Shown: positions 7,351 to 44,804 of the stretch, one piece after another | Numbering within the stretch: the first letter of the stretch is position 1 | Layout of the letters: the number at the start of each line of letters is the position of its first letter | Source of the DNA: a virus | Taxonomy: Duplodnaviria > Heunggongvirae > Uroviricota > Caudoviricetes | Direction: 5' to 3' (one strand) | Length of the DNA stretch: 64,000 bases | Virus record (IMG/VR): IMGVR_UViG_3300028042_000001 | Location: 92,944-156,943 of that record | Program-made: the position numbers and the translations under genes | Notes under the pieces: generated by a model | Database searches by the model: none | Told to the model about the DNA's origin: nothing | The model's input: the letters and a program-made list of their open reading frames with translations, nothing else

Positions 7351-7424
7351 GTGACAGTAGCTCAAAGGTTAGATCATGTGGCTGTGACCCACAAGATGAG
7401 GGTTCGATTCCCTCCTGTCACCCA
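7351..7424 (+). tRNA. tRNA-His (anticodon GTG)
   Basis: acceptor GTGACAG/CTGTCAC, D-arm TAGCTCAAAGGTTAGA, anticodon stem TGTGG/CCACA with loop CTGTGAC, T-arm GAGGGTTCGATTCCCTC, CCA. Confidence 0.75.
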
Positions 7425-7450: not shown

Positions 7451-7771
7451 ATGAAAGTGATTGATGCAGGACATACATATTTACTTGATGATAACAAATC
7501 ACCAACAAATACTACAACATTAACATTTATGAAGGATGCTAAAATAAATGGAGATGGTTATGAAGGAACAACTAATCAGGAAGTTTTACGAGCATTAATA
7601 GATCGTATTAAATTTCTAGAAGGGCAAGTTCATCATAGATTTAATGATGATATTATTGGTCATCTTAGGATGGCATTGGTTCTTCATGAAGAACGACATT
7701 TAGAACGATTAGTAGAACGAGGAGAATCTATAGAAAATATTAAACCTAAAATTACTGGACATTTTGTATGA
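7451..7771 (+). CDS. hypothetical protein (106 aa)
   Basis: ORF with AAGGA RBS; ATGA overlap with the next gene. Confidence 0.45.
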   Translation: MKVIDAGHTYLLDDNKSPTNTTTLTFMKDAKINGDGYEGTTNQEVLRALIDRIKFLEGQVHHRFNDDIIGHLRMALVLHEERHLERLVERGESIENIKPKITGHFV

Positions 7772-8130
7772 ATAATAAGGAATTGTTATTTTCTATAACA
7801 AAGAAAGATTTTGATTTGTATTGGTTTTCTGGAACTGGTGCTGGTGGTCAAGGACGTAATAAGCTTCAGAACAGCCTTAGATTGTCTCATAGACCATCAG
7901 GAGCATCATCAACAGGGCAAAGTAGTAAAAGTAGAGTTGCTAATCAGAAAGAGGCATTTAAAGGTATTATGGAACATCCTAAGTTTAAGATGTGGTATAA
8001 TAAAAAAATTATGGAGTGCTTATATGAAGAAACAACTGAAGAAAAAATTAAAAAACAAATGATTCCTGATAATCTACGAATAGAAGGTAAAGATGATAAA
8101 GGTAGATGGAATAAAATTATAGAAGATTAG
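7768..8130 (+). CDS. ArfB/RF-1-domain-like GGQ-motif protein (putative peptidyl-tRNA hydrolase / ribosome rescue factor)
   Basis: FSGTGAGGQGRNKLQNSLRLSHRPSGASSTGQSSKSRVANQKEAF parallels the ArfB GGQ domain pattern (..GAGGQHVNKT.TAI.L.....Q.R....N), followed by a basic tail. Confidence 0.6.
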   Translation: MNNKELLFSITKKDFDLYWFSGTGAGGQGRNKLQNSLRLSHRPSGASSTGQSSKSRVANQKEAFKGIMEHPKFKMWYNKKIMECLYEETTEEKIKKQMIPDNLRIEGKDDKGRWNKIIED

Positions 8131-8193
8131 TCTAGGGGTTAAGGCATCTCGCTTACATCGAGAATAACACTGGTTCGAATCCAGTATCTTCTA
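8121..8193 (+). tRNA. tRNA-Val (anticodon TAC)
   Basis: acceptor AGAAGAT/ATCTTCT, anticodon stem TCTCG/CGAGA with loop CTTACAT, T-arm CTGGTTCGAATCCAG; 5' end overlaps the stop of the upstream CDS. Confidence 0.7.
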
Positions 8194-8201
8194 AATTATA
8201 T

Positions 8202-8423
8202 ATGGTGAATATTATGGCATTAGTTAATGGAAAGATTTTAAAAGGTGATGATTGTCCTTATAAGAATATTTGTGATTTTATGATAACTGCCTGTAATGGC
8301 GAAGGATGTCCATTTTTGTTTAAAGATAATCATTTTTGTGAGTTTTCTTGTGGTGCCTCTAGATTTTATGCTCTTATGGAAAAATCAGAAAAATCAGAAA
8401 AAAATAAATATAAGAGTAAATAA
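8202..8423 (+). CDS. hypothetical Cys-rich small protein
   Basis: ORF; several Cys residues, no recognisable motif; GAAAAATCA x2 repeat at 3' end. Confidence 0.4.
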   Translation: MVNIMALVNGKILKGDDCPYKNICDFMITACNGEGCPFLFKDNHFCEFSCGASRFYALMEKSEKSEKNKYKSK

Positions 8424-8443: not shown

Positions 8444-9454
8444 ATGAATTTTAGAAAATATAGTTCTATAGAAAATACATACAGAACAAAAACAATTAAT
8501 TATATTGTTGAATGTGGATATTCTTCTGGTATATGGGTTTCTTCTTTAAAAATTCATGGTGCTAATTATAGTTATTGGAGTGATGGTGATGTTGTAAAAA
8601 AAGCTAGAAAATCAGGATTTCTTGAAGGAGAATCATTTTATGGAGATTCAACATTTAATTATGATCAAAATATATTGAATATGTTTAACAATCTTAAAAA
8701 GCAAGGAGATTTTAGTACTCTTACTGTATATGGAGAAATATATGGAGGAATATACAATCATCCTAATGTAGAAGCTATTAAAAATGTTAAAAAAGTTCAG
8801 AAAGAGGTACAATATAGACCTGATGTTAATTTTATTGTTTTTGATATAAGAGTTGATGATATATTATTAGATCATTATACTGTTGTTGAATTATGTGATC
8901 AATTTGGATTTTTTCACGTACCTGTGTTGGGAATGGGATCTTTTTATGATTTAATGAAAACTCCTGTTGTATTTCCTGATCCTCTTGGTATAATGTTGGG
9001 TTATCCAAAGTTAGAAGATAATGATGCAGAAGGATGGGTGTTAAAACCTGTTATGCCAGAATTTTTTAATAATGGTTCAAGAGTTATTCTTAAAGGTAAA
9101 AATCCTTCCTTTTCTGAAAAAAATGGTGGAAAAAAAGGAAAAATTCATAATACAATAATTGAGATGTCAAAAGAAGGAGATTATATCAAAGAAGAATTAT
9201 TGTTATATATTAATGAAAACAGACTGAGAAATGTATTATCTCATGGGGAGATTTGTAAAATAACTCAAAAAGATTTTGGTAAATTATTAGGATTATTTTC
9301 TAAGGATATTTTTGTTGATTTTTTGAAAGATAATAAAGATAAATTTGATATTATTGATAAGAAAGAACAAATCACTATAAAGAGAATTATGAACAAAACT
9401 GCTGGTGATATTATCCGGTTAAATTTTCTAAATATTATAGATGGTGAATTTTAG
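8444..9454 (+). CDS. rnlB: RNA ligase 2 (T4 Rnl2-like)
   Basis: KYSSIEN N-terminus; nucleotidyltransferase motif I KIHGANYS (T4 Rnl2 KIHGTN); EGWVLKP..NNGSRVILKGKN.SFSEK and KDFGKLLGL blocks match T4 Rnl2 closely. Confidence 0.9.
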   Translation: MNFRKYSSIENTYRTKTINYIVECGYSSGIWVSSLKIHGANYSYWSDGDVVKKARKSGFLEGESFYGDSTFNYDQNILNMFNNLKKQGDFSTLTVYGEIYGGIYNHPNVEAIKNVKKVQKEVQYRPDVNFIVFDIRVDDILLDHYTVVELCDQFGFFHVPVLGMGSFYDLMKTPVVFPDPLGIMLGYPKLEDNDAEGWVLKPVMPEFFNNGSRVILKGKNPSFSEKNGGKKGKIHNTIIEMSKEGDYIKEELLLYINENRLRNVLSHGEICKITQKDFGKLLGLFSKDIFVDFLKDNKDKFDIIDKKEQITIKRIMNKTAGDIIRLNFLNIIDGEF

Positions 9455-9700: not shown

Positions 9701-10168
9701 ATGTCTGCTATAGCTTTTTCTCAAAGTGCGTATGATGAATTTGATAGTAAAGGTAAAACCACAGTAAAACGGTTTTTTAAGTCAAAAGGATTTTTTTGTT
9801 ATCCTGATGATGAGGAACGAGGAATTGATCTTCATTTTTCAAAAAAAGATCATCCAGATATTTATATAGAAGTAGCGGTAAGACATTATTTTGATTGGCC
9901 GTTGTATGATTGGAAAATAAAAGCACCATGGGAAACAATTCATATTTTACGAAGAAAGGCTAAATATGGAAGACCTGAACCGTTTTGGTATGGCGATAAA
10001 GCATACTTATTCGAACTTAATAGAAGTATGGAACAAGCTTTTGTTATAAGACCTTGTGATTTACAAAAGAAATATTTAAAACTTCTAACTAATGTTCGTG
10101 GGAAGGAATGGATTTATGATATTCCTGTAGAAGAATTTAAAATATTTGATTTAAGAATGCATCAGTAG
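9701..10168 (+). CDS. hypothetical protein (155 aa)
   Basis: ORF; no recognisable motif. Confidence 0.45.
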   Translation: MSAIAFSQSAYDEFDSKGKTTVKRFFKSKGFFCYPDDEERGIDLHFSKKDHPDIYIEVAVRHYFDWPLYDWKIKAPWETIHILRRKAKYGRPEPFWYGDKAYLFELNRSMEQAFVIRPCDLQKKYLKLLTNVRGKEWIYDIPVEEFKIFDLRMHQ

Positions 10169-10234
10169 TCAAATTGGATTGGCACAAGATTACGAATCTT
10201 GATTGATGTGGGTTCGACTCCCATCTGGTGCTCA
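10159..10234 (+). tRNA. tRNA-Arg (anticodon ACG)
   Basis: acceptor GCATCAG/CTGGTGC, anticodon stem CAAGA/TCTTG with loop TTACGAA, T-arm TGGGTTCGACTCCCA. Confidence 0.6.
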
Positions 10235-10240
10235 AAATAT

Positions 10241-10316
10241 GCGTCTGTAGCTCAGTTGGAAGAGCACGAGATTTCTACTCTCGGTGTCGGAGGTTCGATC
10301 CCTCTCAGGCGTTCCA
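10241..10316 (+). tRNA. tRNA-Arg (anticodon TCT)
   Basis: acceptor GCGTCTG/CAGGCGT, D-arm TAGCTCAGTTGGAAGAGC, anticodon stem CGAGA/TCTCG with loop TTTCTAC, T-arm GGAGGTTCGATCCCTC, CCA. Confidence 0.75.
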
Positions 10317-10339
10317 TAATTAATATAAAGGAGGATGAT

Positions 10340-10840
10340 ATGGAAAGGGTGATAGTGTTAAATTATGATTATAGTTTTCTAAATGTTGTTTCTCCTGAAA
10401 AGGCTTTTTCTTATATAGCTCGTGGAAAGGTTATTGTTGAAAAAGTAGCGGATAAGGTCTTGACAACTGCTGAAAAATCATTTAAAATACCTGTAATTGT
10501 TCGGTTCTCTTATATGATAAGACAAATATATAAGAGAAAAATACCATGGAGTAAGCGTAATGTGTGTATCAGAGATAATTATACCTGTGCATACTGTGGT
10601 GTAAAAAGTGATATAATGACAGTTGATCATGTTATACCTAAAGCTCATGGAGGAAAAAACACTTTTGATAATTGTGTTGCATCATGTAAGAAATGTAATA
10701 ATAAAAAAGGTGATAAAACATGTAAAGAAATAGGAATGTTTCCTTCTCATAATAGAACACATCCTACTGTTTCTGACTTCATGCGATTATGGTATAAACA
10801 ATATAATGTAAATGATATTATAAAATCAATATGGGAGTGA
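10340..10840 (+). CDS. HNH endonuclease
   Basis: CAYCGVKSDIMTVDHVIPKAHGGKNTFDNCVASCKKCNNKKG HNH motif; RBS AAGGAGGA; the track ORF start at 10199 is translated tRNA sequence, so the start was moved to the ATG at 10340. Confidence 0.75.
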   Translation: MERVIVLNYDYSFLNVVSPEKAFSYIARGKVIVEKVADKVLTTAEKSFKIPVIVRFSYMIRQIYKRKIPWSKRNVCIRDNYTCAYCGVKSDIMTVDHVIPKAHGGKNTFDNCVASCKKCNNKKGDKTCKEIGMFPSHNRTHPTVSDFMRLWYKQYNVNDIIKSIWE

Positions 10841-12560: not shown

Positions 12561-13051
12561 TTTTTTTATTACTAAGGATATATCATGATAAAACACATAA
12601 TTCTGCTGATGTGTTTGTGATGGATATTGCTCAAACATATGATGGATTAAAAGTTATAGAGTATAATACATTTAATTCTGCTGGATTATATGCCTGTGAT
12701 GTTGGTAATATAATTGATGGTATAAACAATTTCTTACAAGAACCATGTTGAGGTTCATTACCTCTTCATGAGAACGGACTATGCGTAAGTAGTCTTCCTA
12801 AGTGGTACGCAACCATGTAGGGCAAAATCAATAAGTCTTTTTGAAGGACATGTGTTGATGTTGTGGTGAAAATCCATATTACGATCCAATGGGGCTATAC
12901 TTGGGAGGACTGAATGGCTTGCAACCAATCGGGCAGGGTTCAATTCCCTGTAGTTCCACAATATATTTTTCAGCGATATCAGCCACTAAAGCTGATAACG
13001 GTGTTCTTAATCACTTAACAGAATGCGAAGGAGTAGTGACCGGACTGAAAC

Positions 13052-13125
13052 GCTACATGGTGAAATGTTATCACAAAGGGATATATGACCCTTAGTTTCA
13101 GGTTAAATTCCTGATGTAGCAACCA
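13052..13125 (+). tRNA. tRNA-like with apparent 8-nt anticodon loop (ATATATGA)
   Basis: acceptor GCTACAT/ATGTAGC, D-stem GTGA/TCAC, anticodon stem AAGGG/CCCTT enclosing 8 nt, T-arm TCAGGTTAAATTCCTGA. Confidence 0.4.
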
Positions 13126-23782: not shown

Positions 23783-24651
23783 GGAGATATGTAATGATAG
23801 ATAAATGTATATATTGTATAGGAAACGATAAATATAATGAAATATCTGATGATTTATTGGTTAATTTCGGCCCTGCCGCTATATTTTGTCCTTATTGTGG
23901 TAGATGTTTAGAAAAAATAGATTATAAGAAGAAACAAAAACCTACAGTTAGATTAAGAGAAAATGGACTTGATACAGGAGAAACTGAAGAACATCATCCT
24001 GCATACGCTCAATTACAATTTTCTAGACAATCGGGAGGGTGTGATAATTTATATGGATCTGCTGTATCACATCAAGAAACAATTTCTATGCGTGTTAGTA
24101 GATCATATAAACATGTATCAAATTATTCTGAACGGTATTTTGCCGAACACACTCCTATTATTGAAATTAGGATGACTCATTCTCAGTTTTCACAGGCAAT
24201 AACTTCTATGAATATGGGTAGTGGTGTTCCTGTAACTCTTGAAATGTTAAAAGGTCAAAGATTTCCTAGATGTGAAGAAAAAACTGTTTCTGAAATAGCT
24301 AATGATGGATTAGATGAAACTTTTAATAATTTTGCTGATAAAATATCAAAAGGAGAACGTAGGCTTCATCAAATTATAGAAAAAAAGGGTACTATTCTAA
24401 AAAAAGAAAGAGAAGAAATTATCAATATATATAATATGTTGATGCAAGAGTTGAGAGATAATATACCATTTCTTCATAAGTGTATGGTTGAAGCTTATGA
24501 AAAAACTGCTCAAAGTTCTAAAGCGGATATAGAGGCATTTTATACGAATGCAATAATGCGGATGGGAGAAGAAGCAATAAATCATAAAAAAATAAATCAT
24601 ATATTAAATGATTCAGGAAGCCTTGATATTATTGATGTGGAGGAAATATGA
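23764..24651 (+). CDS. hypothetical protein with N-terminal zinc ribbon
   Basis: CIYCIGN..CPYCGRC pattern; 295 aa. Confidence 0.45.
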   Translation: MGSNIIRRYVMIDKCIYCIGNDKYNEISDDLLVNFGPAAIFCPYCGRCLEKIDYKKKQKPTVRLRENGLDTGETEEHHPAYAQLQFSRQSGGCDNLYGSAVSHQETISMRVSRSYKHVSNYSERYFAEHTPIIEIRMTHSQFSQAITSMNMGSGVPVTLEMLKGQRFPRCEEKTVSEIANDGLDETFNNFADKISKGERRLHQIIEKKGTILKKEREEIINIYNMLMQELRDNIPFLHKCMVEAYEKTAQSSKADIEAFYTNAIMRMGEEAINHKKINHILNDSGSLDIIDVEEI

Positions 24652-25385
24652 AATTAGCATTTGGTAGTGATTTCCATTTTGAGTTTTATCATAGTATAAT
24701 TGATGCAAAAAAAATGATATCAAAATGGAAATTTGATAAAGATACCGACATGATTGTTATAGCAGGAGATCTTCATGTTGGTGCTAAAAAAGTATTTAAA
24801 TTATTAACATTTATATATGATATACATAAAATTCCTATTATATATGTTCCCGGAAATCATGAATACTATAATTCATCATTTTATAGAGAAAATGATCATT
24901 TTTATAGAAAAGGTATAAGTCACGAAGGAAAATTTTATATTCTTTTACAAAATAGCGTATCATTTGGTGATAAGAAATTTTATGGATGTATGGGTAATAT
25001 TGATGGTTCTTATAAGCATATTTCTATAGATACTCATGGATCATTAAATGACTTCCATAAGATCAAAGACTTTAATAAACATGATGCTAAGGGAAGACGA
25101 GAATTTGATTTTTTGCTTAAAAATGTAGAAAAAGATTCTGTTGTTATTACTCACACCATGCCTTCACCTAAATGTATTTCAGAACGATATAAAGGGGATC
25201 ATTATAATCCTTGTTTTACTAATGATTGGTCTGAGATAATATACACAAATGAACCAAGAGTTTGGATTTGTGGTCATACTCATGATAGTGTTAATATACA
25301 AATTGATAATACTTTTGTTGTTGCTAATCCTTTTGGATATCCACATGAAAATGTTAATTGGGAATGGGTGAATATTCATGTGTGA
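24648..25385 (+). CDS. calcineurin-like metallophosphoesterase
   Basis: motifs GSDFHFE, AGDLHVG (GDxHG), PGNHEYY (GNHE), CGHTHD (GHTH). Confidence 0.75.
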   Translation: MKLAFGSDFHFEFYHSIIDAKKMISKWKFDKDTDMIVIAGDLHVGAKKVFKLLTFIYDIHKIPIIYVPGNHEYYNSSFYRENDHFYRKGISHEGKFYILLQNSVSFGDKKFYGCMGNIDGSYKHISIDTHGSLNDFHKIKDFNKHDAKGRREFDFLLKNVEKDSVVITHTMPSPKCISERYKGDHYNPCFTNDWSEIIYTNEPRVWICGHTHDSVNIQIDNTFVVANPFGYPHENVNWEWVNIHV

Positions 25386-25821
25386 TGACATATTAGAATT
25401 TCAGGGTGAATATAGATGGTTGTCTAATTTTTGGCCTGTAATTATACAATATGAAGGGTATAAATTTCCTTCTAATGAGCATTTTTATCAAGCTATGAAA
25501 TTTAAAGAAACTCGTTGGGATTTTTTTACTAAATGCAGAAATCCTAAAAAAGAAGCAAGGAAAATTCCCTATAATTATACACATAACCTATGGAATAAAT
25601 ATAAAGTTGGTATTATGTGGGCAGGACTTCATATTAAATTTCAAGATTATATATTAAAAGACAAATTATTAAATACTGGTAATGTTGAAATTGTTGAAGG
25701 TAATAGTTGGCATGATAATTTCTGGGGAAATTGTTTGTGTGATAAATGCAAGAATATTGATGGAGAAAATATTCTTGGAAAATATTTGATGTTGATAAGA
25801 GAGGAAATAAAAAATGGATAA
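25378..25821 (+). CDS. NADAR (YbiA/DUF1768) domain protein
   Basis: FQGEYRWLSNFWP..YKFPSNEHFYQAMKF signature of the NADAR family. Confidence 0.75.
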   Translation: MCDDILEFQGEYRWLSNFWPVIIQYEGYKFPSNEHFYQAMKFKETRWDFFTKCRNPKKEARKIPYNYTHNLWNKYKVGIMWAGLHIKFQDYILKDKLLNTGNVEIVEGNSWHDNFWGNCLCDKCKNIDGENILGKYLMLIREEIKNG

Positions 25822-26761
25822 TAAACGAAGATTTTTATTAACGCATTATGATCTTGATGGTGTTGCGGCTGATATTTTGATGTCTAACATGTATATGTTT
25901 GAAAAGAAGCATATGTGTGGCTACGCAAAAATAAAAGAGAAAATTGATAATGGAGAATTGAGTGGGTATGATTCTGGTGTTATTACTGATGTTAGTCTTG
26001 CACCAGAACAATTTTCTTTTATTTCTAAAGAATATAAAGATAAATTATTATATATTGATCATCATAAACCTAGTATTAATGCCGTTAGTAATAATGAATA
26101 TAAATCTACATGTGTTGTTGATACAACATTCAGTGCCTCTGGGTTGATATTTCAAACTTTTTTCAAGAAATTAAAAAAAGTTCCTCATGTTGTTGATTTT
26201 GTTATTGCAGTTGATGCTTATGATATGTGGAGAATAGATACCAATATAGATAATTTTAAGAAAGGGTATGATCTTAATGTTCTTTTTTGGAAATATGGAT
26301 ATTTTGATTTTTATGATCGTTTTTTTGATAATATGTCTTTTAACTTTTCAAGCACAGAAAAAAAATATATAAGTGATCATAAAAAAGAAAGAGATGATCA
26401 TATAATTCATTCTGATAAAACAGATTTCGGTAATAATTCTCTTTTGGTATTAGATGCTCCTGCTGATTATGTTAATGATTTTACTATTCAATTACCAGAT
26501 TATGATATATATTTTATGGTTTGTACGACTAGAGAAGGTACATTAACTCTTTCTATGAGATCCAAATTAAATGGAGTTGAAAGTGATCTTGGTAATGTAG
26601 CAAAAAATGCAAAAAATATGTTTGATTATATTATATCTGCTGGTGGTCATCCTAAAGCCGCTGGTATTGATTTTTTTGAAAATACATCTATTGATGATAT
26701 TCTTACTGTTGTTGAATATGTTAATGATACTATGGAAGCTAATGAGTTAATTCCATTTTGA
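25814..26761 (+). CDS. DHH/DHHA1 family phosphoesterase (NrnA-like)
   Basis: motif I THYDLDGVAAD, motif III IDHHKP, DHHA1 SAGGHPKAAG. Confidence 0.7.
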   Translation: MDNKRRFLLTHYDLDGVAADILMSNMYMFEKKHMCGYAKIKEKIDNGELSGYDSGVITDVSLAPEQFSFISKEYKDKLLYIDHHKPSINAVSNNEYKSTCVVDTTFSASGLIFQTFFKKLKKVPHVVDFVIAVDAYDMWRIDTNIDNFKKGYDLNVLFWKYGYFDFYDRFFDNMSFNFSSTEKKYISDHKKERDDHIIHSDKTDFGNNSLLVLDAPADYVNDFTIQLPDYDIYFMVCTTREGTLTLSMRSKLNGVESDLGNVAKNAKNMFDYIISAGGHPKAAGIDFFENTSIDDILTVVEYVNDTMEANELIPF

Positions 26762-36164: not shown

Positions 36165-37556
36165 ATGAATGAATTTTTAAATAAAGTACCACAAAAAGAA
36201 TCAATCATCTGGAAGACTTTAATCGATGCTGGATATCAAACATATCTAGTTGGTGGTGCTGTAAGAGATATTCTTTTGTGTGAATCTCCTAAAGATTTTG
36301 ATTTTGCTACAAAAGCAACGCCTTCTGATATTAGTAATGTTTTTGAAAACAGTAATTTTAAATTGGATTTTGTTGGAGCATCTTTCGGTGTTATGATGAT
36401 TGATGATATTGAGGTCGCTACTTTCCGAGGAGATCGGTATTTTGGTGGTGGAGACAAGGATGTAGAAATAACATATGTTGATAATATCGATGAAGATCTT
36501 TCTAGGAGGGACTTCACTATCAACGCAATGGCTATGTCTCCTAATGGAAATCTTATTGATCCTTTTGATGGAGAAGCTGATTTAATTAATCATGATTCTA
36601 TTATAATTCGGTTTGTTGGTAATCCTGAAGATCGGATTAATGAAGATCCAAACAGAATTATGAGAGCATTCCGGTTCTCTGCTAGGTTTGATGCTGATTT
36701 TGCTAGAACAACAGCAGTTGCGTTAAATAATAATATAGATAAAGTCAATATGATCGCTCCTGAACGTATTCGATTAGAAATAATTAAAACTTTAAAATCT
36801 ACTAAAGATTCTTCTATATTTTGGGAATTGCTTCGTAACAGTGGTGCTTTGGATATTATATTTCCTGAGATGGGCTATGGATGGAAACATGATCATGGTA
36901 ATCATCATCCAGAAGATGTATGGACTCATAATATGCTTGCTGGTGATTATATAAAAGGAGAAAGACCTTTGCTTAAATTAGCAGGATACCTTCATGATGT
37001 TGGAAAACCTGCGTCATATGATCCTGAAAAAAGAACATTTTATGAACATCATACTATGGGAGCTGATATTATTAGAGAAAGGCTTTCGTTATTGAAATTT
37101 TCTAATGAAGAGATTCGATATATTGTTAATCTTACATTGGTTCATATGGATGGAACACGAGGTATGTCTGATAAAGCTCGTAGGCGTTTAAAGAATAAAT
37201 TAGGTAGATATGATATTAATTGGGAAGAATATCTTACTATTCGTGTTGCTGATAGACATGCTAATCTTTCACGCCCCGATTTTACAGTAAAACAAATCAA
37301 TGATTATATTGAAATGTTTACAATAGATGAAGTTGTACCTATTAGTGTTAATTCTCTTGTATTGTCTGGTGGTCAGATTATAGATATATTTAACTTGACA
37401 CCATCTCCTATTGTTGGTAATATACAAAGAGAGTTGTTAAGATTAGTTGTAGAAAATGGTGATCAATTTAATACAATTCCTCGTCTTGTAGATCATATAA
37501 TGGATGTGTTTGATATTGAACCTGATTTTATAAAAGTTCAGAAATTAACAAAATAA
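36165..37556 (+). CDS. cca: tRNA nucleotidyltransferase (CCA-adding enzyme) with HD domain
   Basis: N-terminal polymerase-beta head LVGGAVRDILL..PKDFDFAT; C-terminal HD motif YLHDVGKP and HH pairs. Confidence 0.8.
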   Translation: MNEFLNKVPQKESIIWKTLIDAGYQTYLVGGAVRDILLCESPKDFDFATKATPSDISNVFENSNFKLDFVGASFGVMMIDDIEVATFRGDRYFGGGDKDVEITYVDNIDEDLSRRDFTINAMAMSPNGNLIDPFDGEADLINHDSIIIRFVGNPEDRINEDPNRIMRAFRFSARFDADFARTTAVALNNNIDKVNMIAPERIRLEIIKTLKSTKDSSIFWELLRNSGALDIIFPEMGYGWKHDHGNHHPEDVWTHNMLAGDYIKGERPLLKLAGYLHDVGKPASYDPEKRTFYEHHTMGADIIRERLSLLKFSNEEIRYIVNLTLVHMDGTRGMSDKARRRLKNKLGRYDINWEEYLTIRVADRHANLSRPDFTVKQINDYIEMFTIDEVVPISVNSLVLSGGQIIDIFNLTPSPIVGNIQRELLRLVVENGDQFNTIPRLVDHIMDVFDIEPDFIKVQKLTK

Positions 37557-40058: not shown

Positions 40059-40124
40059 GTCATTATAAGAATGAGAATTTATAATAAAACGAACAAATAC
40101 GGAATAAGTCAAACACTACGATAG

Positions 40125-40186
40125 CTCAGTGGTAGAGCGCCTGTATATTAAACAGTATGTGGTAGGTTCAATTCCTACTCGTAAAT
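40125..40186 (+). tRNA. tRNA-like gene with imperfect acceptor stem and ambiguous anticodon loop
   Basis: D-arm TAGCTCAGTGGTAGAGC, T-arm GTAGGTTCAATTCCTAC, anticodon region CTGT ATATTAA ACAG; acceptor ACTACGA/TCGTAAA has two terminal mismatches. Confidence 0.4.
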
Positions 40187-43709: not shown

Positions 43710-44804
43710 ATGCATGTTATTGATTATTTAAAGGTAAATTCATTAGAAAAACTAAAAGATGAATTTGGAATTAAGGTTAGAGAATATAATAATGGTTTGG
43801 TTGTTTTGAATTATGATCAAATAAATTCACCAAAATATCATCCTATAATTAAAGAATGTAGAGGGTTGATTATAGATATAATTACATTAAAACCAGTATC
43901 TAGGACATTTAATAGATTTTTTAATCTTAATGAAAATGAGCGTGATAATTTTAATTCGTTTCGTCTTGAAAGAGTTGAAGAAAAAGCTGATGGATCTTTG
44001 ATATCTGTTTATTGGTATGATGATAAATGGAATATTGCTACAAGAGGAACAGCATATGCAGAAGGAGAAACTAATACTGGTATAACCTATCATCAGTTGT
44101 TTCTTAATATAATTGGTGTCCCTCTTGATGAATTTATGAAAGATCAATTTAGAAATGAATCATATACATTCGAATTATGTTCTGTATATAATAAAGTAGT
44201 AAAATTATATACAGAGCCTACTATTTACTTATTGAATGCTGTTGAGGTGATAACAGGTATTGAACGTAATAAAGATTCTCTCGATTGTATAGCGGATACT
44301 CTTAATGTAAAACGTCCTAATATATATAATATTGACTTTGCGAGTATTATTAGTTCTTTTGAACAATTCCCTGCAACAGAAGAGGGATATGTTCTTATTG
44401 ATATGGAAGGTAATCGAGTAAAGGTTAAAAATCCTGCATATGTTAATTTACATCATTTAAAAGGAAACGGGCCGTTATCCCCTAAAAGAATAACTAATGT
44501 TGTTTTTAGTGGGGAAACTGATGAAGTTCTTGAATATTTCCCAGAATATACTGAAATATTTGATCCTTATGAAAAATCATACAATCATTTGATAAAGGAA
44601 ATTAAATATGTTTTTTCTGAATTAACCCGGATGGCTTTGAATCAGAAAGATTATGCAGAAAGAGCTGTTAAATTTAATTATTCAGGAATTTTATTTTCAT
44701 TAAGAAAAGGATTGACATTAAAAGAATCTATTGGTAAAATAGGTATTGAAAGTAAGGTTGTCTTACTAGAACAGTTTTTAAAAATATATAACGGAGATTT
44801 ATAA
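43710..44804 (+). CDS. rnlA: RNA ligase 1 (T4 RnlA-like)
   Basis: nucleotidyltransferase motif I EEKADGSLIS (KxDGS), motif EGYVLID; 364 aa, size and layout of T4 Rnl1. Confidence 0.7.
   Translation: MHVIDYLKVNSLEKLKDEFGIKVREYNNGLVVLNYDQINSPKYHPIIKECRGLIIDIITLKPVSRTFNRFFNLNENERDNFNSFRLERVEEKADGSLISVYWYDDKWNIATRGTAYAEGETNTGITYHQLFLNIIGVPLDEFMKDQFRNESYTFELCSVYNKVVKLYTEPTIYLLNAVEVITGIERNKDSLDCIADTLNVKRPNIYNIDFASIISSFEQFPATEEGYVLIDMEGNRVKVKNPAYVNLHHLKGNGPLSPKRITNVVFSGETDEVLEYFPEYTEIFDPYEKSYNHLIKEIKYVFSELTRMALNQKDYAERAVKFNYSGILFSLRKGLTLKESIGKIGIESKVVLLEQFLKIYNGDL

Follow-up and report, generated by a model that had tools for sequence, protein, structure and literature searches.

We analysed a stretch of 64,000 nucleotides (the window) from an uncultivated tailed phage, positions 92,944 to 156,943 of the IMG/VR record IMGVR_UViG_3300028042_000001, and concentrate here on a short gene on its plus strand (7768–8130) that lies within an array of tRNA genes. 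The open reading frame (ORF) runs from an ATG to a TAG stop through 120 codons, and its translation contains, letter for letter, the sequence FSGTGAGGQGRNKLQNSLRLSHRPSG...SKSRVANQKEAF in which the original prediction had recognized the GGQ catalytic loop of an ArfB-like peptidyl-tRNA hydrolase. The motif itself, G26 G27 Q28, is read from the sequence as ggt ggt caa at 7843–7851 (+) and is invariant in sets of 26 and of 119 homologues. We refer to the product of 120 amino acids (aa) as the mini-GGQ protein; it consists of a stand-alone GGQ domain of the type found in domain 3 of release factors (RFs), followed by a family-specific C-terminal module. The ratio of nonsynonymous to synonymous substitution rates (dN/dS) against an 80%-identical homologue is 0.13, indicative of purifying selection, and since G24, G26, G27 and Q28 are also invariant in the 119 homologues, we conclude that 7768–8130 is a real gene under selection. 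Its N-terminus (M..KELLFS) agrees with the N-termini of the homologues.

The gene sits, as predicted, between tRNA-His (anticodon GTG; 7351–7423, +; called by ARAGORN and scored at 62.7 bits with Rfam) and tRNA-Val (TAC; 8121–8193, +; 63.5 bits with Rfam, 8120–8194 with ARAGORN). A further ORF (7451–7771, +; 106 aa, matching phrog_2428 at 9e-8) also intervenes after tRNA-His, which forms the upstream edge of the pair. The TGA stop of this ORF overlaps the ATG of the mini-GGQ gene as ATGA, an arrangement in which the two are probably translationally coupled. The mini-GGQ gene is probably also co-expressed with the tRNAs and with an RNA ligase gene of the Rnl2 family that follows it. A scan for promoters and terminators gave a result no better than that for shuffled sequence.

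At its 3′ end the gene runs into tRNA-Val. The acceptor stem of this tRNA (AGAAGAT/ATCTTCT), whose gene as read from the sequence does not encode the CCA, overlaps the final codons of the ORF and its TAG stop (8128–8130), with the last two sense codons and the stop lying within the 5′ strand of the stem. RNase P cutting a shared transcript at this point would strip the stop codon from the mini-GGQ mRNA and place a rescue-type factor on a potential non-stop mRNA. Autoregulation through tRNA-Val processing, along the lines of ArfA regulation, was considered and rejected because the overlap is not conserved: in locus L003, which carries an 80%-identical relative, tRNA-Val begins 136 nucleotides (nt) past the mini-GGQ stop, and in the other array-embedded relatives the next tRNA lies at least 45 nt downstream of it.

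Domain architecture and relation to known GGQ proteins

The profile search proposed with the original prediction returned the expected domain: PF00472 (RF-1) matched residues 8–71 at E=5.4e-9 (36.4 bits against a gathering cutoff of 35), and all 120 listed homologues carry a precomputed match to it. The phage profile phrog_3122 ("RF-1 domain peptide chain release factor") matched over nearly the whole protein (E=5.3e-18; residues 3–115, profile positions 20–128 of 136). When a profile of 119 homologues was compared with the PDB, RF2 and RF1 scored best (1e-12 to 4e-12), ahead of C12orf65/mtRF-R (3.5e-10), PrfH (4e-8) and ArfB/YaeJ (6e-3), and the family aligned with RF2 residues 234–303 without any insertion. 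G24, G26, G27, Q28 and N31 are invariant across the 119 homologues. An AlphaFold2 model on the same alignment is confident, with a mean predicted local distance difference test score (pLDDT) of 88.7. It contains three strands, the GGQ loop, a long helix 56–69 that continues as 71–86, a helix 90–97 and a hairpin at 106–116. The GGQ domain (residues 8–71; 7789–7980, +) thus comprises strands 15–20, 36–41 and 46–50, the GGQ loop and helix 56–69, and its invariant motif lies, within the GGQ-domain fold, in the loop that joins strand 1 to the short helix, the arrangement that characterizes the bacterial GGQ peptidyl-hydrolase superfamily. Judged by these sequence and profile comparisons, the domain is a genuine GGQ peptidyl-tRNA-hydrolase domain of the RF1/RF2/PrfH/mtRF-R type.

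The protein starts about 10 residues before this domain and ends about 50 residues past it. Residues 72–120 (7981–8127, +) form the family-specific C-terminal module, which falls outside both the Pfam RF-1 match and the alignment with ArfB. The module is predicted to be folded (helices 71–86 and 90–97, strands 106–108 and 114–116 of the hairpin; pLDDT 79–89) and has its own conserved positions, with F73, W76 and E106 invariant and N102 nearly so. The protein of 120 aa contains no codon-reading domain and therefore any release activity must be codon-independent, which bears out, at the level of architecture, the stop-codon independence that had been proposed. GGQ domains catalyse peptidyl-tRNA hydrolysis solely in the peptidyl-transferase centre.

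The accessory modules that accompany the GGQ domain in ArfB, PrfH and RF1/RF2 are absent from the mini-GGQ protein. It shares domain 3 with RF1 and RF2 and lacks their domains 1, 2 and 4, which provide stop-codon recognition (through a PxT or SPF motif) and the switch loop. The corresponding equivalog models reach 30–34 bits against cutoffs of 370–423 and match only RF positions ~206–281, which places the protein outside these families. The same holds for PrfH, whose equivalog model TIGR03072 scores 25.3 against 166.65 bits over PrfH positions 105–162 alone: the N-terminal ribosome-recognition domain of PrfH (PMC9304027), which resembles RF domains 2/4, has no counterpart here. PrfH rescues damaged ribosomes by releasing the peptide, and RtcB2, encoded with it in the prfH-rtcB2 operon, reseals the 16S rRNA (PMC9304027). 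The ligase next to the window gene is Rnl2, with no RtcB adjoining, and in the family as a whole a ligase partner is mostly absent and of varied class when present. The insertion-free GGQ domain also aligns with mtRF-R/C12orf65, over query residues 6–102. In that factor, which acts on the split mitochondrial large subunit together with a dedicated partner, MTRES1, the C-terminal extension is basic, whereas the C-terminus of the mini-GGQ protein is not basic: it is a folded, neutral-to-acidic module, and there is no conserved partner gene.

The comparison with ArfB (YaeJ)/ICT1 was of particular concern, since it was to ArfB that the gene product had been likened. ArfB and the mini-GGQ protein share a codon-independent architecture, the GGQ domain and a similar size (120 versus 140 aa), and as regards the domain and its likely codon independence the earlier reading stands. 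Kinship with ArfB and its mechanism do not: among the GGQ proteins compared, ArfB/ICT1 gave the weakest matches to the mini-GGQ protein in sequence and structure. With the NCBIfam ArfB equivalog NF006718, whose cutoff is 100, the protein reaches 13.1 bits (E=0.06) and so falls outside that family, and the profile of the mini-GGQ family matches ArfB over the GGQ loop alone (residues 13–39). With hhalign, for which the E. coli ArfB sequence was checked and found identical to PDB 4v95 chain AY, ArfB residues 10–93 align with the family only with a gap of ~24 residues (21+2+1) opposite ArfB ~41–66. This is the site of the characteristic ArfB/ICT1 insertion between strands 2 and 3, which the mini-GGQ family lacks, and the flexible linker and tail of ArfB (94–140) have no counterpart either.

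The short basic tail "as in ArfB" that had been part of the prediction is not there. Residues 75–120 hold 10 K/R against 11 D/E (net charge −1, isoelectric point (pI) 5.4) and residues 100–120 have a pI of 5.05, whereas the ArfB tail (residues 101–140) has 16 K/R against 3 D/E, a net charge of +13 and a pI of 12. The pI of the whole mini-GGQ protein is 9.55, and the C-terminal half is neutral or acidic in most family members. The observation that prompted this work therefore holds for the ORF, the quoted sequence, the GGQ domain and the tRNA flanks and fails for the tail. Mutagenesis has shown that ArfB activity and ribosome binding depend predominantly on the C-terminal tail (PMC3950681), the basic stretch with Arg118, Leu119, Lys122, Lys129 and Arg132 that binds the empty mRNA channel. 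Because the mini-GGQ protein lacks this tail, the way in which ArfB works, with a helix that senses whether the mRNA channel is empty, cannot be transferred to it.

Distribution and genomic context of the family

With this gene, a catalogued and widespread phage family gains a new, divergent member. A tblastn search found the family in 209 of 50,697 GenBank phage records at 93% query coverage; 206 of these are Bxz1-type (cluster C) mycobacteriophages, in which the gene is annotated as "RF-1 (domain) peptide chain release factor". The family also occurs at 435 places in IMG/VR. In view of these counts, the statement that such proteins are rare in phages is true only in a relative sense. A word-indexed protein search returned 156 stand-alone proteins, of which the 120 listed are 81–137 aa long, and an exhaustive search with a profile through 1.84 billion representatives yielded ~716 clusters (50% identity) at E≤1e-10. 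The best 150 of these ~716 clusters are all 65–193 aa and include no domain fusion informative about function. The BFVD adds further small RF-domain proteins in phages of Acinetobacter, Pseudomonas and Aeromonas. Among 185,579 prokaryotic species genomes (one per species) only ~10 full-length relatives were found, mostly on phage-like contigs of metagenome-assembled genomes (MAGs), and the distribution of the family is phage-specific. One such contig, JBAYVI010000001.1 (locus L087), which had been assigned to a Melioribacteraceae MAG, equals the IMG/VR record IMGVR_UViG_3300014205_000181 (locus L074) in length (144,548 bp) and in the identity of its mini-GGQ match; here a phage genome was probably placed in a bacterial bin by mistake, or the assignment is a clue to the host.

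The GenBank and phrog_3122 proteins, such as gp204 of the mycobacteriophage ScottMcG (Bxz1-like, cluster C) and gp125 of Tunturiibacter phage Tunturi_3, are 32–37% identical to the window protein and have the same full-length architecture at ~110–125 aa, including the N-terminal LLFS.T..D, the GGQ loop and the C-terminal F..W and NLK.E motifs. They differ in lineage and setting: the window belongs to a T4-like, 29% GC (guanine plus cytosine), uncultivated myovirus that carries the gene in a tRNA array near Rnl2, whereas in ScottMcG it lies between the genes for DNA polymerase III alpha and UvsX/RecA. In mycobacteria, Morgado and Vicente (2018; PMC5966550) described a class of tRNA arrays whose core gene is a coding sequence with an RF-1 domain, and raised ribosome rescue as a speculative role. 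What is new here is the recurrent adjacency of the mini-GGQ gene to unrelated RNA ligases in four lineages.

These ligases belong to three unrelated classes (Rnl2, DRB0094-type and RtcB) and abut the gene in lineages that are independent of one another. An Rnl2 ligase lies 224–314 nt from the gene in the window and in L003, a DRB0094-type ATP ligase 594 nt away in L005, and an Rnl2-like ligase 736 nt away in L009. The closest association is in L013, a 74.8-kb IMG/VR contig (9983–11496), where a 54%-identical mini-GGQ protein is encoded upstream of a 382-aa RtcB-family ligase whose ATG overlaps the mini-GGQ TGA as ATGA, so that the two genes are translationally coupled. This pair is a phage counterpart of the bacterial prfH-rtcB operon arrangement; its ligase reaches the cutoff of neither the general nor the PrfH-linked (release_rtcB) NCBIfam RtcB model (163.6 versus 271.8 for the latter). 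A ligase was found within 10 kb in six lineages, and in four of the six it lies within 750 nt (binomial p = 4e-4 to 7e-4, in a test that is conditional on a ligase within 10 kb and draws on a small sample in which gene order is not random). We regard the proximity as no more than suggestive. A general linkage to RNA ligases was rejected, as adjacency is confined to ~5% of lineages and the conditional proximity test alone is significant. Because ~95% of lineages have no ligase nearby, the family must be able to function without one.

The wider context was examined in 78 non-redundant loci drawn from the window, the relatives from the protein look-up and 80 IMG/VR loci. Neither BLAST clustering of the neighbours nor a Pfam census, which covered 125 flanking ORFs, revealed a dominant family; only replication and recombination genes recur, at low frequency: superfamily 2 (SF2) helicase, DnaB, DNA methylase, Pol A, Pol III alpha, RecA/UvsX, ribonucleotide reductase (RNR) and SbcC. 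A dedicated partner protein was sought and rejected, as in 86 other loci jackhmmer searches with the ORFs at 7451–7771 and 8202–8423 detected no homologue of either.

The placement within a tRNA array, as noted in the original prediction, holds for the window and several other lineages and fails as a property of the family. The gene lies inside or abuts tRNA arrays in independent lineages (window/L003, L033, L035, L079 and L081). A family-wide link to tRNA arrays was nevertheless rejected, as a tRNA is present within 10 kb in 20 of the 78 loci, and in the tRNA-containing loci the gene is no nearer to tRNAs than other genes are (rank test p=0.18). In L033, a 168.6-kb IMG/VR contig (7930–10196; 48% identity), the mini-GGQ gene stands between two tRNA-Ser genes in an array of 22 tRNAs. 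An ORF 1.4 kb downstream in this contig, to which no profile match was assigned, contains both peptide-deformylase motifs (EGC[LM]S and HExDH) and, if it is a deformylase, would be one more translation-related accessory gene.

The phage and its tRNA and RNA-repair genes

The source contig spans 156,943 bp at a GC content of ~29%, and no nucleotide-level relatives were found among sequenced phages. Its DNA polymerase is of the T4 gp43 type, 41% identical to the enzymes of cyanomyoviruses, and the phage also encodes UvsX, a DnaB-like helicase, a primase and RNR. ARAGORN called 22 tRNAs in the window: 21 on the same strand between 41 and 15835, and one more at 40115. Five of the 22 are missing from the Rfam list at the gathering threshold, among them a tRNA at 13051–13125 with a four-base "atat" anticodon and no assigned identity. 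The solitary tRNA far from the array, at 40115–40186, is a tRNA-Asn with the unusual anticodon ATT (Rfam 48.6 bits).

Three further genes of the window encode RNA-maintenance enzymes. The Rnl2-family RNA ligase (8444–9454, +; PF09414 and PF18043; phrog_548 at 5e-60; TIGR02307 at 1e-47, below its cutoff) starts 314 nt downstream of the mini-GGQ gene, keeps this synteny in L003, and is a possible functional partner of the mini-GGQ protein. A CCA-adding tRNA nucleotidyltransferase is encoded at 36165–37556 (+; phrog_2244 at 3e-68; NCBIfam CCA tRNA nucleotidyltransferase models at 2e-58), and an Rnl1-like RNA ligase of the T4 gp63/RnlA type at 43710–44804 (+; phrog_562 at 1e-50; TIGR02308 at 6e-20). 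No polynucleotide kinase/phosphatase was recognized among the ORFs scanned in the window, which also encodes a metallophosphoesterase (24648–25385) and a DHH phosphoesterase (25814–26761).

Two smaller features of the array deserve mention. Between tRNA-Val and Rnl2 lies a Cys-rich ORF of 73 aa (8202–8423) with C..C, C...C and C...C spacings, which suggest that its product is possibly zinc-binding; it has no match in Pfam or PHROG and no homologue in any related locus. A gene for an HNH homing endonuclease (10199–10840) is inserted further along, in agreement with published HNH genes in tRNA arrays, and its position is kept in L003 (12492–13016). The longest-ORF call for this gene overlaps two tRNA-Arg genes (10159–10316), and its true start is probably further downstream.

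Possible roles in ribosome rescue

Altogether, we favor a model in which the mini-GGQ protein is a phage "mini release factor", a ribosome-dependent and codon-independent peptidyl-tRNA hydrolase that serves ribosome rescue during infection, and we hold this model with moderate confidence. We envision that, on ribosomes with an A site long left empty, the protein moves into the large-subunit part of that site and places its GGQ loop in the peptidyl-transferase centre, so that peptidyl-tRNA would be hydrolysed without a stop codon being read and the ribosome and tRNA could be recycled. Stalls of this kind could arise in infection from tRNAs, mRNAs or rRNA cleaved by host ribotoxin or anticodon-nuclease defences, or from the breakdown of host mRNA. 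Because no part of the protein reaches the decoding centre or the mRNA channel, its choice of substrate should differ from that of ArfB; candidates are ribosomes with mRNA still in the channel or, as for mtRF-R, 50S-peptidyl-tRNA complexes. Alternatively, a host factor or the protein's own C-terminal module could recruit it to its target. In this phage the 22 tRNAs, the Rnl1-like and Rnl2 ligases, the CCA-adding enzyme and the mini-GGQ protein would form a toolkit for maintaining the translation apparatus. The tRNA array, the two ligases and the CCA-adding enzyme, together with the codon-independent GGQ domain, make a rescue role under translational stress reasonable. A comparable role, the rescue of ribosomes jammed by cleaved tRNAs, has been proposed for phage PTH2 (PMC7824862).

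Several observations weigh against this model. For the single sequence the PF00472 pass is marginal, at 36.4 versus 35 bits, and our search of the literature for experiments on GGQ proteins of phages returned no biochemical or genetic study of family members. The context of most members offers little that speaks of translation: they lie among replication and recombination genes, no conserved neighbour gene was found and the immediate neighbours are almost all singleton clusters, only 20 of the 78 loci have a tRNA within 10 kb, the gene is no nearer to tRNAs than its fellows where tRNAs occur, and ~95% of lineages have no ligase within 10 kb. Moreover, loss of the tail leaves the GGQ domain of ArfB inactive and with poor binding to ribosomes (PMC3950681). 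By analogy, the activity of a GGQ domain that has no sensor may be low if neither the C-terminal module nor a host factor contributes affinity. Since tail-less ArfB is inactive, the affinity of the mini-GGQ protein must come from that module or from a partner.

The rival accounts differ from this model mainly in what the GGQ domain acts on and what brings it there. One is a more specific version of the model itself, in which the mini-GGQ protein is a minimal PrfH-like factor that frees the peptide from ribosomes whose tRNA or rRNA a host ribotoxin or anticodon nuclease has cut, and the neighbouring ligase then reseals the RNA. The ligases of three classes that abut the gene in four lineages invite this idea. 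However, the ligase statistics come from a small sample, ~95% of lineages have no ligase within 10 kb, the L013 RtcB cannot be classified as the PrfH-linked type (163.6 versus 271.8), and the ribosome-recognition domain of PrfH is absent (TIGR03072, 25.3 versus 166.65); we treat rescue followed by repair as a tentative possibility for the family. The alignment with mtRF-R/C12orf65 raises the prospect of a large-subunit-specific factor acting on split 50S-peptidyl-tRNA, possibly with the host S4-domain protein Hsp15/RqcP in the part of MTRES1. This appears unlikely, as the basic C-terminal extension of C12orf65 is not found in the mini-GGQ protein and an S4-domain partner is absent from the 25 most frequent Pfam families of the 125 flanking ORFs.

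A different kind of role, in attack rather than support, is also conceivable: as a promiscuous or competing A-site binder, the protein could abort host synthesis or disturb the host RF, transfer-messenger RNA (tmRNA) and ArfA pathways. Such host shut-off would need no partner, any vacant A site could be a target for a GGQ domain that has no sensor, and in most phages the gene lies in early or middle replication modules. Its sequence, however, offers no selectivity for host over phage messages, the invariant GGQ favours catalysis over mere blocking, and the fact that several lineages have the gene with tRNA arrays and RNA ligases speaks for a supporting role in translation, so that we consider shut-off decidedly improbable. 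Least probable of all, in our judgement, is an ArfB-type non-stop factor whose basic tail senses the empty mRNA channel at the 3′ end of a truncated mRNA and thereby positions the GGQ domain. The codon-independent GGQ architecture, a length close to that of ArfB and the overall pI of 9.55 are what such a factor would have, but the insertion, linker and basic tail that mark ArfB are all missing.

To our knowledge, all characterized ribosome-rescue GGQ factors have a targeting module. RF1 and RF2 carry codon-reading domains, PrfH a reader of the damaged decoding centre, ArfB and ICT1 a tail for the mRNA channel, and mtRF-R relies on a partner protein. The mini-GGQ family has no recognizable module of this kind, yet hundreds of large phages retain it, and its catalytic loop is invariant. 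These findings raise the possibility, which we advance with caution and consider doubtful at present, that mini-GGQ proteins are a new sensor-less class that would clear stalls caused by RNA-cleaving host defences, among them stalls with mRNA in the channel or on split 50S subunits, which ArfB and tmRNA handle poorly, and that together with phage ligases (Rnl2, RtcB or DRB0094-type) and tRNAs they provide a "rescue-and-repair" counter-defence. If true, phages would have arrived by convergence at a minimal analogue of the PrfH-RtcB2 system of bacteria. For annotation, the labels "peptide chain release factor 1" and "ArfB" are both unsuitable for these genes. Through the recurrent pairing with ligases, a link between RNA repair and peptide release can be put to a direct test, and the identity of the substrate would reveal how a bare GGQ domain is targeted and whether phages recycle ribosomes during infection, for example in response to RNA-cleaving defences or the decay of host mRNA.

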